Notes under the pieces: generated by a model
What the model saw: the letters and a program-made list of their open reading frames with translations, nothing else
What the model was told of the DNA's origin: nothing
Database searches by the model: none
Program-made: the position numbers and the translations under genes
In this document: one piece after another, positions 35,987-41,536 of the stretch
Layout: the number at the start of each line of letters is the position of its first letter
Position numbering within the stretch: the stretch's first letter is position 1
Origin: Myxococcota bacterium
Lineage (GTDB): Bacteria; Myxococcota_A; Polyangia; Nannocystales; Nannocystaceae
Direction: 5' to 3'
NCBI GenBank assembly: GCA_039028615.1
Contig: JBCCHT010000007.1
Location: 231,405 to 295,404 of the forward strand
Length of the DNA stretch: 64,000 nucleotides

Positions 35987-37291
35987 ATGGCGCAGCGACC
36001 AGCTACCAAAGGACGCCGCCTGATCCGCTTGGCCTCGATGACCGCGCGGGTTGCGACGGGCTACACCAAGTCTCGGGTCAAGTCGGTCTTCCAGAGCAAG
36101 GAAGCCGCCGATCGCGATCGTCTCAAGGCCCACGAAGAGGCGGGTGAGCTCATCGCCCAGACCCTGGGCGAGCTCAAGGGCGCGGTGATGAAGGTCGGGC
36201 AGATGGCCTCCATCGCGGGCGACCTGCTGCCCAAGGAAATGGCCGATGCCCTCGGCGCGCTGCAACGCGAAGCGCCGCCCATGGACTTCGAGGTCATCGC
36301 CGAGCAGATCGAGCGTGAGCTCGGGGCGCCGCCGCCCATGCTCTTCGAGCGCTTCGACCCCGAGCCCTTCGCCTCGGCGTCCATCGGCCAGGTCCACCGC
36401 GCCCGCACCGACGACGGCCGCGAGGTCGTGGTCAAGGTGCAGTACCCGGGCGTCGACGATGCCGTCGATTCCGACCTCGCCCACCTAAAGGTGGCCCTGC
36501 GCGCCAGCGGCCTGGTCAAGATCAAGAAGAAGGCCCTCGACGCCGTCTTCGCCGAGCTCAAGGCCCGGCTCGTCGAGGAGCTCGACTACTGCAACGAGGC
36601 CGACAACGTGCGGCTCTTCGCCGACTACTACCGCGACCACGAGCACGTCGTGGTGCCCGAGGTCGTCGGCGAGCGCAGCAGCCAGCGCGTGCTCACCCTG
36701 ACCTACGAGCCCGGCCATCACATCACCGAGCTCGACGGCTTCAGCCAGCAGGTCCGCAACGACATCGGCGCGGCCCTGTTCCGCACCCTGGCCGACCAGA
36801 TCTTCAACCTCCAGGTCCTGCACGCTGACCCGAACCCGGGCAACTTCGCGTTCCGCCCCGACGGCACCGTGGTCCTGTACGACTTCGGCTGCGTCAAGCG
36901 GCTCGACCCCGAGATCATCGAGGCCTACCGCGACACCATTCGCGCCGGCTTCACCGAGGACTACGAGGGCATCGAGGCCGGCCTCATCCGCTTGGGGGCC
37001 CGCAACCTCGACGGCCCCGAGATTCCGCTCGACTACTACAAGCCGTGGCGAGACATCTTCTTGCGGCCACTGCTGGGCGACGACCCCTACGATTTCGGTC
37101 ACTCGAGCCTGCAAAAAGACGCGATCAAGCTCGTGCCCACCTTCCTGACCAAGTACATCGGGGCGTTCCAGCCTCCGGTCGAGATGGTGTTCCTCGATCG
37201 CGTGGTGGTCGGGCACTACGGCAACCTGCGGAAGCTCGGCGCGATCGCGCAGTACCGCGGCCTGCTCGAAGCCCACGTGCCCGGCGTCTGA
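35987..37291 (+). CDS. ABC1/AarF/UbiB atypical kinase
   Basis: LKGAVMKVGQ, PFASASIGQVH, VVVKVQYPGV, HADPNPGN and LYDFGC. Confidence 0.93.
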   Translation: MAQRPATKGRRLIRLASMTARVATGYTKSRVKSVFQSKEAADRDRLKAHEEAGELIAQTLGELKGAVMKVGQMASIAGDLLPKEMADALGALQREAPPMDFEVIAEQIERELGAPPPMLFERFDPEPFASASIGQVHRARTDDGREVVVKVQYPGVDDAVDSDLAHLKVALRASGLVKIKKKALDAVFAELKARLVEELDYCNEADNVRLFADYYRDHEHVVVPEVVGERSSQRVLTLTYEPGHHITELDGFSQQVRNDIGAALFRTLADQIFNLQVLHADPNPGNFAFRPDGTVVLYDFGCVKRLDPEIIEAYRDTIRAGFTEDYEGIEAGLIRLGARNLDGPEIPLDYYKPWRDIFLRPLLGDDPYDFGHSSLQKDAIKLVPTFLTKYIGAFQPPVEMVFLDRVVVGHYGNLRKLGAIAQYRGLLEAHVPGV

Positions 37292-37360: not shown

Positions 37361-37401
37361 TTGACACGCTCGCGCTTTCGGTCCACGGTGAATTCACCGT
37401 G
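37361..37401 (+). promoter_or_regulatory. Putative sigma70-type promoter overlapped by an 18-bp perfect palindrome
   Basis: TTGACA 37361-66, a 17-nt spacer and a weak -10 CACGGT 37384-89. Palindrome CACGGTGAATTCACCGTG at 37384-37401. Confidence 0.55.
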
Positions 37402-37518
37402 TCGATTCGACGCAGCCTCTTCGTGAAACCGCTGGTGAGCGGGGCCGAGCTCATTCGGTACCGTCACTGGCTGCCGGTTTCCCACGCCATGATGGCGATG
37501 GGAGACCCAGGTCCATAA
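37399..37518 (+). CDS. Putative leader peptide (39 aa from GTG, or 9 aa MMAMGDPGP from ATG 37489)
   Basis: MSIRRSLFVKPLVSGAELIRYRHWLPVSHAMMAMGDPGP*. Its last codons overlap the antiterminator arm. Confidence 0.5.
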   Translation: MSIRRSLFVKPLVSGAELIRYRHWLPVSHAMMAMGDPGP

Positions 37519-37548
37519 GGCGCGTACACGCACGAATTCGCAGGAATT

Positions 37549-37585
37549 ACGCCCTTCTGGACCATCCAGGAGGGCGTTTTTCTTT
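37549..37585 (+). terminator. Intrinsic terminator (attenuator) in the 5' leader of the ABC exporter operon
   Basis: Stem ACGCCCTTCTGGA / TCCAGGAGGGCGT followed by TTTTCTTT, ending about 26 nt before ATG 37612. Confidence 0.85.
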
Positions 37586-37611
37586 GTCTGACCACGGAAA
37601 CGAAACGAACG

Positions 37612-38610
37612 ATGACCGCCGCGATCGAGATCGACGAGCTGACCAAGACCTTCACCGTGCGCGAGCGCGGCAAGGGGCTCGTGGGCGCCATGCGAGCGGC
37701 CTTCGTCGCTCCCACCCGCACGCTGACCGCCGTCGATGCGCTGTCGTTGCGCGTCGAGCCGGGGGAGCGCATCGCCTTCATCGGGCCCAACGGCGCAGGT
37801 AAGTCCACTGCGCTCAAGATGCTCTCGGGCATCCTGCACCCCACCTCGGGGCGGGCGTCGGTCATGGGCCTGTGCCCCTGGGACGAGCGGCGCCGGCTGG
37901 CCCACCGCATCGGCACCGTCTTCGGGCAGCGCTCGCAGCTTTGGTACCACCTGCCCGCGGCCGAGACCTTCGAGCTGCTGGCGCGCATCTACGACCTGCC
38001 CCTGCCCCAGTATCGGCAGCGCCGCGACGGCCTCGTCGAGCGCTTCGAGATCGGGGCCCAGCTGAGCAAGCCGGTTCGGCAGCTCTCGCTCGGGCAGCGC
38101 ATGCGCTGCGAGGTGGTCGCGAGCCTGCTGCACGCGCCCGACGTGCTGTTCCTCGACGAGCCGACCATCGGCCTCGACGTGTCGGCCAAGGCCACCATCC
38201 GCGACGTGATCCGCCACGACTCCGAGCACCACGGGCGTACCGTCGTGCTCACCTCCCACGACACGGGCGACATGGAGCGGGTCTGCGACCGCGTGGTGGT
38301 CATCCACGCGGGGCGGGTGCTCGTCGACGAGCGCATCGAGCACTTGCGGACCCGTCTGCTGGGTCGCAAGCGCGTGGTGGTGCGCACCGCCGAAGCCACC
38401 CTCTCGCTCGACTTACCCGGGGTGCGGGTGCTGAGCCAGCGACCGCACCACACCACGCTCGAGGTGGAGACCGACCGCAGCCCCATCGAGACCGTGGTGC
38501 AGGCCGTGCTACGAAGCTCCGGCCTGCTCGACCTGACCATCGAAGACCCTCCGATGGATGAAGTGATCCAGACCCTCTACGAACGCGCACGACGACAGGC
38601 GAGCCCATGA
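37612..38610 (+). CDS. ABC exporter ATP-binding subunit
   Basis: GPNGAGKS, LSLGQRMR, LFLDEPTIGLD and TSHD. Confidence 0.95.
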   Translation: MTAAIEIDELTKTFTVRERGKGLVGAMRAAFVAPTRTLTAVDALSLRVEPGERIAFIGPNGAGKSTALKMLSGILHPTSGRASVMGLCPWDERRRLAHRIGTVFGQRSQLWYHLPAAETFELLARIYDLPLPQYRQRRDGLVERFEIGAQLSKPVRQLSLGQRMRCEVVASLLHAPDVLFLDEPTIGLDVSAKATIRDVIRHDSEHHGRTVVLTSHDTGDMERVCDRVVVIHAGRVLVDERIEHLRTRLLGRKRVVVRTAEATLSLDLPGVRVLSQRPHHTTLEVETDRSPIETVVQAVLRSSGLLDLTIEDPPMDEVIQTLYERARRQASP

Positions 38611-39389
38611 ACGCCAAGTACCTGTACATGGTCCGGGTCTCCGCTCGTCAGCGCCTGGCCGAGCGCGGCGCCCTGCTGGGCCGCGCCGGCTACTACGCGC
38701 TCGTGCTCTACGTGTTCTCGAAGATCTGGGAGGCCGTGCTCGCCGACCAATCGCTCGACTTCGCCGAGCCCCACCAGCTGGTCTGGTACCTGGCGATTAC
38801 GGAGTGGATCATCCTGTCGATCCCCGCCTTGCACCTCGAGGTCGAGGACGAGGTTCGCCAGGGTGACCTCGCCTACCGCCTCGCGCGGCCCGTGGCCTAC
38901 CCGCTCGCCAAGATCGCCGAGGGGGTGGGCAACCTCGTGGTGCGACTGGCCGCGATGGCGCCGCTGGGCTTCGGCGTCGCCTATGCGCTCACCGGGCAGC
39001 TGCCCACCGAGCCCGCGAACCTGCTGTGGCTGCTGCCCCTGGGGCTGCTCGCGGGCGTGCTGTGGACCCTCAACATGTTCGCGGTGGGCCTCAGCTCGTT
39101 CTGGCTGCACCAGTGCAAGCCCATCTACTGGATCTGGCAGAAGTCGGCCTTCGTGCTCGGCGGGCTCTTCTTGCCCCTCGACGTCTACCCCGACGGGCTG
39201 CGTCAGTTCGGGGAGTGGACGCCCTTTGCCGCCGTGCTCTACCGCCCGGGCACCCTCGCCCTGGGCGCCGAGACGGCCGACGCTCTGTTCACCATGGCCC
39301 TGCTGCTGGGGTGGATCGCCGTGTGTGGACTCGTCACCGCCGTGCTCTATCGCCGCGCCCTCGCTCGCCTCGAACTCTCGGGAGGATGA
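38607..39389 (+). CDS. ABC-2 family permease (DUF990-type)
   Basis: About 6 TM helices, EVRQGDLAY.L.RP and GGLFLPLDVYP. ATGA overlap. Confidence 0.88.
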   Translation: MNAKYLYMVRVSARQRLAERGALLGRAGYYALVLYVFSKIWEAVLADQSLDFAEPHQLVWYLAITEWIILSIPALHLEVEDEVRQGDLAYRLARPVAYPLAKIAEGVGNLVVRLAAMAPLGFGVAYALTGQLPTEPANLLWLLPLGLLAGVLWTLNMFAVGLSSFWLHQCKPIYWIWQKSAFVLGGLFLPLDVYPDGLRQFGEWTPFAAVLYRPGTLALGAETADALFTMALLLGWIAVCGLVTAVLYRRALARLELSGG

Positions 39390-40165
39390 CCATGCGCCTG
39401 TTCTTCGCCTTGTTGTCGACCAACCTCCAAGCCGTCCTCGCCCTGCGCACCACGTTCTGGATTCAGGCGCTGTTCATGGCGCTCAACAACGTCATCTTCT
39501 TCGTGTTCTGGTGGGTGCTCTTCGAGCGCTTCGACGAGATCCGAGGGTGGCGCATCGAGGACGTGGCCGCGCTTTTCGGGGTGTCGGCCGCAGGCTTCGG
39601 GATGGCGAGGATCTTCGCGGGGGGGCTCGATGGCCTCGCCGAGCGCATCGACGGCGGTCAGCTCGATCCGCTGCTCGTGCAGCCTCGCAGCGTGCTGCTC
39701 ATGACCCTGGGCTCGCGCACCAACGCCGACGGCTGGGGCGACGTGCTCAGCGGCTTCGTGCTGCTCGCATTTTCGGGATACCTCAGCGGCGTGGGCCTCG
39801 TGCTGGCCCCGCTCGCCGTGCTGCTCTCCGGCCTGGCCTTCACCGCCTCGGGGCTGCTCATCAACTGCCTGGCCTTCTGGCTCGGCCGCGTCGACGATCT
39901 CGCCCGGCTCATCTGGGACTTCCTGCTGGTGTTCAGCGTCTATCCGCCGTCGCTGTTCGGCGGGGCGCTGCGGGTCGTGCTCTACACGCTGATCCCCGCC
40001 GGGTTCGTGGCCTACTTGCCCACGGAGCTCCTCCGCAATCCCGCCGTGAACACGCTGGTCATCGCCTCGCTCGGGGCAGCGCTGTACGCCGTGCTCGCGG
40101 CCTGGGTCTTCAGTCGTGGGCTGCGGGTCTATGCCAGCGGCAGCCGCTTTGGCGTTCGCGATTGA
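39386..40165 (+). CDS. ABC-2 family permease (DUF990-type)
   Basis: IRGW, GQLD.LLVQP, YP..LF, IPAGFVAYLP and GLRVYASG. ATGA overlap. Confidence 0.88.
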   Translation: MTMRLFFALLSTNLQAVLALRTTFWIQALFMALNNVIFFVFWWVLFERFDEIRGWRIEDVAALFGVSAAGFGMARIFAGGLDGLAERIDGGQLDPLLVQPRSVLLMTLGSRTNADGWGDVLSGFVLLAFSGYLSGVGLVLAPLAVLLSGLAFTASGLLINCLAFWLGRVDDLARLIWDFLLVFSVYPPSLFGGALRVVLYTLIPAGFVAYLPTELLRNPAVNTLVIASLGAALYAVLAAWVFSRGLRVYASGSRFGVRD

Positions 40166-40192: not shown

Positions 40193-41536
40193 ATGTTTTC
40201 GGCCCGCCTTCGGGACTATCATCGAAGGCGCGAAGTGACCTCGACCTCCCCCGCCGACCGCTCGCCCGTATCGCCCGAGCGCATCGTGCTCCGCTGCGAG
40301 TCCTGCGGAGGCACCCTGCCCACGCCCGATGTGGCCTCGGTGCTCTGCCCCGGCTGCGGCGTGGTCAACCGCATCGACGGGGCATTGCTCGAGACGATCC
40401 GGGCCCATCAAAAGCGCGTCGGGCACTACCGCAAGCAGGTCGACAGCGCGACCGAGCAGGCCATCGGTGCCCGGCTGTCCCATGTGCTCGGCAAGGGGTG
40501 GGCGATCGGCATCGTCACGTCGTGGCTGGTCGCCGGGGTCGTGATGATCCCCGACACCCTCGCCACCCACCTGCTCGCGCTGGCGATCTTCGTGGGGCCC
40601 TTCATCGGGCTGTTCGTGCACGTCCGGCGAGCCGAGCGACGCATGCGAGCGGAGATCGTGGCGGCGCGGCAACGAGAGGCGATGGTGTACGTCGCCTGCC
40701 CGACCTGCGGCGGCCAGAGCGAGTTCCTGCCCGACGAGCCCGTGCGCCCCTGTGGCTACTGCGGCGGCACCTTGGCCGCCGATGCCCAGTCGCGGGCCGA
40801 CATGATCGCCGCCGCCCGGGACGAGGCCGTGCGCGAGCAGTGGATGGCGACCCACCAGCGCTGGCGGAGCAGCGCCATCACCCACCGCGATCCTGCGACC
40901 GATCTCGTCCCCTACTTCGTGATCGGCGGCCTGGGCTCGCTGCTCGTGCTCGGCACGGTGATCACCGACATTCGGCTGCTGCTGTTCGACCCGGGGCAGC
41001 CGGTCGACACGGGCGGACTCGTCGTGCTGCACGTGCTGTCCCTCGGGGTGCTCGTGGGCGTCGGCGCGCCGCTGTGGGCACGACGGAGCCGAGCGCGTCG
41101 CTGGACGGCCGCGGTCGACTCGCTCGCCCGTGCCACCCGTGGCCGGGTGGAGTGGACGCTCGGTGCGTTCGCGGAGTGGCTCGTCGCGCACTGGAGAGGC
41201 GAGTTCACGTCGCGCGAGATCTGTGCCGGTCGGCAGTACGCGGTCGTCCGCTCGACCCGCGCGCCGCTGTGGGCTCTGTCGCTCGCCCCCGTGGCGCTCG
41301 AGGACAGCCTGGTCGTCCGCCACGTGCGGCTCGTCGTGCCCGGGGATGCTCGCGGCCTCGCGCTGACCCGGTTCGCGGAGGCGATGCGTGAGCTCGGGAT
41401 GAAGGTCCGCCTCGAAGACGCCGGGCTCATTGCGCAGTGGGTCGGTCGGCCCGCCGATGGGCTCTACGACGACCCCGAGGGCCTACGGCCGCTCGCCGAG
41501 GCCATTGCCGCCGCCAGCGAGCCCGCTTCCCGCTAG
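40193..41536 (+). CDS. Membrane protein with two zinc-ribbon (CxxC...CxxC) modules
   Basis: CESCGG...CPGCG and CPTCGG...CGYCG, each followed by a pair of TM helices. Confidence 0.7.
   Translation: MFSARLRDYHRRREVTSTSPADRSPVSPERIVLRCESCGGTLPTPDVASVLCPGCGVVNRIDGALLETIRAHQKRVGHYRKQVDSATEQAIGARLSHVLGKGWAIGIVTSWLVAGVVMIPDTLATHLLALAIFVGPFIGLFVHVRRAERRMRAEIVAARQREAMVYVACPTCGGQSEFLPDEPVRPCGYCGGTLAADAQSRADMIAAARDEAVREQWMATHQRWRSSAITHRDPATDLVPYFVIGGLGSLLVLGTVITDIRLLLFDPGQPVDTGGLVVLHVLSLGVLVGVGAPLWARRSRARRWTAAVDSLARATRGRVEWTLGAFAEWLVAHWRGEFTSREICAGRQYAVVRSTRAPLWALSLAPVALEDSLVVRHVRLVVPGDARGLALTRFAEAMRELGMKVRLEDAGLIAQWVGRPADGLYDDPEGLRPLAEAIAAASEPASR

Follow-up and report, generated by a model that had tools for sequence, protein, structure and literature searches.

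A probable leader-peptide attenuator family ahead of DUF990-type ABC exporters that would sense slowed translation

Described leader-peptide attenuators and the leader of the window

Leader-peptide attenuators are a textbook kind of regulatory switch, and TnaC works as a stop-codon arrest peptide. In the whiB7 leader, efficient translation of a uORF (upstream open reading frame) leads to the terminator and inefficient translation to the antiterminator (PMC10274678). The bmrCD exporter of Bacillus subtilis is likewise controlled by leader-peptide attenuation and is induced by ribosome-targeting antibiotics (PMC4191407, PMC13689557). The vmlR leader of the same species combines a uORF with an anti-antiterminator, an antiterminator and a terminator (PMC9226507), leaderless first-cistron small ORFs with runs of cysteine codons control operons in mycobacteria (10.1101/834739), and in the case of PepNL and TnaC a ribosome held on the stop codon matters for the expression of the genes downstream (PMC11890864).

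Here we analyzed a leader located in a stretch of DNA of 64,000 nucleotides (hereafter the window), all its features lying on the forward strand. The promoter is of the sigma-70 type (37361-37389), with TTGACA at 37361-66 and, 17 nt further on, the weak -10 box CACGGT at 37384-89, a layout that recurs in 33 other complete leaders; a sigma-70 consensus scan of the window leader called 0 promoters, CACGGT being too weak for the scan. Nine nt past the -10 box starts a near-leaderless uORF of 39 codons (37399-37518), whose homologous frames have a coding-type bias and which runs from GTG at 37399 to TAA at 37516-18 with the 3' end GAC CCA GGT CCA TAA. This uORF includes hairpin A (37476-37507; -22.2 kcal/mol), three internal Met codons in frame with it (31, 32 and 34; 37489-37500) and, 15 nt before the stop, a Shine-Dalgarno (SD)-like GGAG (37501-37504), identified by its positional clustering in homologous uORFs and buried by hairpin A in the untranslated RNA of the window (unpaired probability 0.00). 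Burial of GGAG in hairpins was rejected as a general rule, the motif being unpaired at 0.26 against 0.18 for other G-rich 4-mers.

The 5' arm of the antiterminator (37510-37526), supported by folding and by homologue pairing, overlaps the uORF stop and takes the form of a CCGGAAG arm in most homologues. In folding of the window it forms 15 pairs with 37548-37563 (-21.9 kcal/mol), and this second segment is also the 5' arm of the intrinsic terminator (37549-37585) that sits between the uORF and the ATPase gene and consists of a hairpin of 13 pairs (37549-77; -23.0 kcal/mol) followed by a U-tract, with compensatory change in the alignment of its homologues. Because one strand is common to both structures, antiterminator and terminator are mutually exclusive, as an earlier note on this DNA had proposed; all the parts named in that note, from the TTGACA-N17 promoter and the short ORF ending in DPGP-TAA to hairpin A, the antiterminator and the terminator, were found where it had placed them.

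Profile matches identified the genes that follow as an ABC ATPase (37612-38610; PF00005, with drrA as the best NCBIfam match, below its cut-off) and two ABC-2 permeases of PF06182, or DUF990 (38607-39389 and 39386-40165), in agreement with the DUF990-type exporter expected downstream of the switch. The same make-up of an ATPase with two PF06182 permeases is that of EvrABC, from the DUF990 family that TCDB lists as the ethyl viologen exporter family 3.A.1.141, and the likeness is one of family make-up only (PMC5417439). No solved structure related to the permease by sequence was found, and the homologues on plasmids, none of them above about 30% identity, bear generic names only. The gene upstream of the leader (35987-37291) encodes an atypical kinase of the ABC1/UbiB type, whose match to the macrolide-binding ATPase MABP-1 is below threshold (172 bits against 800), and past the exporter lies an ORF of 447 amino acids (40193-41536) with CxxC pairs and hydrophobic stretches but no Pfam or NCBIfam match. 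In related loci, GNAT acetyltransferases (L130:4584-5012, L153:4591-4974) or a second ABC ATPase (L116:4591-5598, L117:4924-5913) lie 3' of the permeases, neither being general.

As would be the case here, whiB7/wblC of Actinobacteria senses ribosome position via a uORF, and drugs as well as amino acid shortage can trigger whiB7; its target is, however, a transcription factor with feedback and its uORF is Ala-rich, whereas the target here is an exporter, and no sequence relation was seen (PMC10274678). The portions of that paper on which we draw mention neither a leaderless start nor an SD before the stop. Ahead of bmrCD, as here, a leader uORF and attenuation precede an ABC exporter, but in bmrB the terminator lies inside a 53-codon uORF and loss of translation raises termination (PMC4191407), whereas the uORF of the window ends before the terminator, its untranslated RNA is predicted to read through and the transporter belongs to another family. 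The vmlR leader places a very short, SD-led uORF inside its anti-antiterminator and controls an ABCF protein (PMC9226507); a helix of this kind is present in some short homologues of our leader, while the window has no significant anti-antiterminator. The mycobacterial polycysteine ORFs share with our leaders the leaderless first cistron and the codons for sulfur amino acids but act on translation initiation through runs of Cys (10.1101/834739), in contrast to the intrinsic terminator and scattered Met and Cys codons found here. Finally, TnaC and PepNL need conserved residues in their peptides (PMC11890864), whereas here the peptide is free to vary and a ribosome sitting on the stop is predicted to repress.

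Distribution of the leader and conservation of its stop position

In a set of 60 related genomes the permease had a single close match (G026, 41%), and scans of metagenome and genome collections yielded 80 and 46 loci. An ATPase tree was built from 74 subfamily rows and 8 outgroup rows after the exclusion of 15 duplicate or partial rows, using a quick method; L138 was mistranslated in it, which makes its placement void. Examination by regular expression and by eye identified the leader in 34 of the 74 subfamily rows and not in the remaining 40, a few of which have too little upstream DNA to judge; 29 of the leader-bearing rows carry the CCGGAAG-type arm (one of them partial) and five, all alphaproteobacterial, a different arm. 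With L162, which was found by RNA pattern alone and has the start, the stop position, the internal Met and the GGAG at -13 that were predicted, the complete leaders came to 34. The same design therefore precedes 34 DUF990 (PF06182) ABC operons of Myxococcota, Gemmatimonadota and Alphaproteobacteria, and this recurrence, along with the anatomy of the leader, supports the proposal of a terminator/antiterminator switch coupled to a uORF. The leader was seen, by eye and promoter regular expression, in none of 26 more distant DUF990 operons, and the quick ATPase tree is compatible with a leader that was present ancestrally and disappeared from one derived clade. The partial L047 was left out of the counts and L117, whose frame is shifted, also out of the peptide counts; because the leaders are homologous, counts of leaders are not independent.

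Pattern searches found no second copy of the element in its own genome and, elsewhere, gave hits in 5 of 401 and 3 of 301 genomes, all matches but L159 preceding this ATPase or repeating known loci. We took L159, which has no uORF or ATPase, and 14 matches in a viral collection, with no ATPase nearby, as chance. At the gathering score Rfam 15 had 0 matches in the window, and the single weak match obtained was to anti-hemB, with 17 bits where 49.5 is the cut-off (E 0.15).

Several rows depart from the common layout. Many members of the clade lacking the leader (L033-L042, L044) carry GAACC-N16/17-GGTTATA immediately ahead of the ATPase gene, at about 10-35 nt from its start. This resembles another promoter, possibly of the ECF type, serving a leaderless message, and regulation may have been swapped in this clade. 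The five alphaproteobacterial leaders (L140, L149-L152) keep the promoter, the leaderless uORF and the stop spacing, have the antiterminator arm inside the uORF (-36 to -11) and show ATG or GTG as second-last codon in five of five. In L117 the uORF is off by one base from its first ATG, pointing to an assembly indel or a broken leader, and L120, from a record titled Bifidobacterium, has an ATPase that groups with a Polyangiaceae one, either by mis-binning or by transfer.

The uORF starts 6-12 nt past the -10 box in 33 of the 34 leaders, and exactly 7 nt past it in 14, so that the message is likely to be leaderless or nearly so. Its stop lies 28-39 nt before the 5' arm of the terminator in all 34, in frame with the first start in 33 and shifted by one base in L117, while the two other frames have their first stop in this zone in only one of 64 cases, that case being L117 itself. 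The uORF is thus conserved as a frame, in-frame from start to stop in 33 of 34, and it has the composition of coding sequence, with a GC3 of 0.81 and an Arg content of 6.6%, where the other frames reach 19.5% and 23%. In contrast, the peptide varies in sequence and in length (22-57 amino acids), with no shared motif and no conserved residues upstream of the stop across the uORF set. These results show that the position of the stop, and not the peptide, is the conserved property of the leader.

Folding of the nascent leader and the role of the stop region

None of 200 shuffles folds as well as the full-length leader of the window (z -5.6). The antiterminator alone, compared by upstream pairing to the 5' arm, ranks 6th of 120 terminator-like hairpins of the genome; by itself it is only modestly beyond chance, and the comparative evidence is decisive. 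Pairing of the stop-region arm with the 5' arm of the terminator is above shuffles singly in 19 of 28 leaders and not so in 9, including L133, L135, L138 and L153, and the antiterminator arms have 88% of cells paired in place compared with 24-65% when slid. In the alignment of 29 sequences the terminator has 99% of its cells paired, and in 5 of its 12 pairs both sides have changed. Covariation of the antiterminator is not beyond shuffles (39-163 of 500) in an alignment where the arm of the window is misaligned.

At equilibrium the full-length RNA of the window always has the terminator folded (P 1.0), so the switch would have to be kinetic, with the choice made during transcription. Folding of the nascent transcript under an assumed ribosome footprint of -12/+16 gave the antiterminator a probability of 0.97 with the ribosome on codons 1-32, 0.54 with the ribosome on codon 34 and at most 0.05 with the ribosome on codons 36-39, and the untranslated nascent RNA also folds it with a probability of 0.97. 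Under this footprint the model bears out the earlier idea that a ribosome at the final codons would promote termination and that one stalled further upstream would free the antiterminator.

We propose that, on the near-leaderless transcript, the ribosome enters at the 5' end and trails RNA polymerase. In an unstressed cell it would have reached the stop as the terminator is being transcribed and, with the 5' arm of the antiterminator covered at that time, transcription would end near 37583. A ribosome delayed anywhere up to about codon 33 would instead let the antiterminator form first and the operon be read. The signal would probably be general translation stress, such as that caused by ribosome-targeting drugs, rather than a ligand bound by a specific peptide. 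On the strength of leader anatomy, its conservation and modelled folding, we find it reasonably probable that the leader is a ribosome-dependent transcription attenuator which turns the exporter on when translation of the uORF is slowed or blocked, the best reading by analogy being a whiB7/bmrB-like attenuator that senses slowed translation.

A count over 29 uORFs gave 19 copies of GGAG, 17 of which are 9-17 nt before the stop, a zone that makes up 8.9% of uORF length, and 10 exactly 13 nt before it. A copy placed at -13 has its end 6 nt ahead of the last codon, which is the usual spacing of an SD at initiation. Pairing of -5 kcal/mol or better with the anti-SD is found in 18 of 29 uORFs, covering at least half of the members in 7 of 11 lineages, whereas the figure is 8% for other parts of the uORFs and 25% for the ends of ordinary genes; GGAG is mostly missing in 4 of the 11 lineages. 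Of 28 uORFs, 17 have ATG, GTG or TTG as their last codon, a share that is 1.9% among ordinary genes, and where the peptide ends in Val the codon is GTG in 14 of 15 cases compared with 13 of 81 in the uORF body, both figures coming from few lineages; in the window the last codon is CCA, which is no start codon. Thirteen of the 17 GGAG copies have the phase xxG-GAG, and conservation of Glu could therefore account for the motif. Recoding with synonymous codons did as well in 17 of 2000 trials over all leaders, which is significant, and in 154 of 2000 by cluster, which is not. This recoding test includes the five alphaproteobacterial leaders; they were dropped from the SD tests that came after it, since in them the G-rich stretch and the antiterminator arm are one and the same. 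Also counting against the SD reading, GUG-UAG pairs with the 5' part of the uORF in several leaders.

An upstream SD can make the release of mRNA from post-termination ribosomes 50-fold slower (PMC5737721). If GGAG were to pair with 16S rRNA in this way, it would prolong the stay of the ribosome on the stop and tighten the off state, since the 5' arm would stay covered while the terminator is made. That the stop codon carries a purpose-built ribosome clamp, in which the SD at initiation spacing, the start-like last codon and the upstream in-frame AUGs delay recycling or restart the same ribosome and so keep the antiterminator covered, is a possibility we put forward tentatively. Were it true, the off state would be set by the kinetics of termination and recycling, and the switch could read drugs or stresses that act on termination, on recycling or on the supply of Met.

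Alternative signals and biological meaning

Internal in-frame Met codons are found in 31 of 33 peptides, compared with 43.5% of 31-codon windows of ordinary host genes, and Met makes up 4.3% of uORF codons, where shuffles give 0.8% (z 12) and the other frames 0.0-0.3%. This excess, which is left unexplained by a purely generic sensor of translation, may mark Met sensing or sites of re-initiation. Shortage of sulfur amino acids, in which ribosomes halting at the internal Met (and Cys) codons that the family conserves would open the antiterminator, is accordingly the least improbable of the rival signals, although we regard it as unlikely. Cys is present in 30 of 33 peptides against 24.5% of the host windows, and 32 of 33 have Met or Cys at least 7 codons before the stop; but the abundance of Cys is near the shuffled level (z 1.3) with none in the peptide of the window, Met codons are mostly single and scattered (-5 to -38) rather than in runs, and the in-frame ATGs could be re-initiation sites instead. 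Redox cyclers cause limitation of sulfur amino acids, and if this signal were the true one a pump of the viologen-exporter family could be tied to redox or methionine-analogue stress. Membership of DUF990 in the ethyl viologen exporter family of TCDB (PMC5417439) and the leaderless polycysteine attenuators of mycobacteria (10.1101/834739) speak for it, whereas the operon encodes an ABC-2 exporter and no sulfur-metabolism gene was found among the 14 downstream ORFs scanned.

In a three-helix switch of the vmlR/bmrB type, the 5' part of the uORF would be joined to the stop region by an anti-antiterminator, RNA left untranslated would end at the terminator, and opening the switch would require a ribosome arrested on the first codons. 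This design appears somewhat more doubtful still. In addition to being the design described for vmlR (PMC9226507), it draws on the pairing of the first 45 nt with the stop region, which over 28 leaders has a mean of -19.0 against -16.6 +/- 0.5 when shuffled (0 of 200, and also by cluster), and on long helices visible in L125, L132, L133 and L157 that could explain the conserved GUG-UAG. Yet this pairing is singly significant in just 5 of the 28 leaders and not in the window (p 0.38), the untranslated nascent RNA of the window folds the antiterminator (P 0.97) where this design has it terminate, and a stop fixed on the antiterminator arm would be left without explanation. The attenuator sensing slowed translation remains our preferred reading.

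The earlier note had attributed control of the exporter to a ligand- or drug-dependent arrest peptide ending in DPGP, of the kind of TnaC, SecM or 2A. DPGP occurs in 1 of 33 peptides, that of the window, and any Pro before the stop in 4 of 33 (12%), which is the background frequency of this genome (11.3% of 7209 gene-like ORFs), so that the arrest-peptide reading fails its own test; the alignment shows no conserved PGP-stop either, GP-stop being present in 2 of 33. The peptides of the window and of its nearest neighbour in the tree, L064, both end in GP-stop and that of L002 in DP-stop, and Pro before a stop reportedly impairs termination (Hayes 2002). However, with no conserved residues upstream, and with arrest on codons 36-39 blocking the antiterminator in the model, arrest at the stop could just repress and not induce. 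It would correspond to the off state, the opposite of an inducible sensor of the TnaC type, and we therefore hold such a peptide to be very improbable; the most that a slow Pro-stop would do in the lineage of the window is reinforce the off state. A macrolide-type +X+ motif was also rejected, being present in just 4 of 32 peptides.

That the uORF encodes a small functional protein, exported or in the membrane, while the terminator sets a fixed ratio of transcripts is the most improbable reading, its coding-like hydrophobic composition and its position beside the exporter being outweighed by a length of 22-57 amino acids without conserved sequence, the lack of a Pfam match for the peptide of the window, a stop fixed on a conserved antiterminator arm and a downstream region in which no modifying enzymes were seen apart from two GNATs.

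Taking these results together with the literature, we consider the leader family to be real, apparently undescribed and of a known kind of switch, with one design feature, the SD before the stop, that may be new. Our full-text search, covering main texts, found no description of a DUF990 leader, of a myxobacterial attenuator of this kind or of an SD before a leader-peptide stop, nor of any leader-peptide attenuator for DUF990 exporters or for Myxococcota, Gemmatimonadota or the alphaproteobacterial phylum of our leaders. The uORF motifs named in the parts of a 50-genome motif survey used here differ from those of our leaders (PMC11109978). If GGAG does act on the ribosome, these leaders would be a natural, selected use of SD-delayed recycling, otherwise described, in the papers drawn on here, just as an effect in vitro and in profiling, and if the inducer is translation stress, it would give a pointer to the class of substrates handled by this subfamily of exporters.
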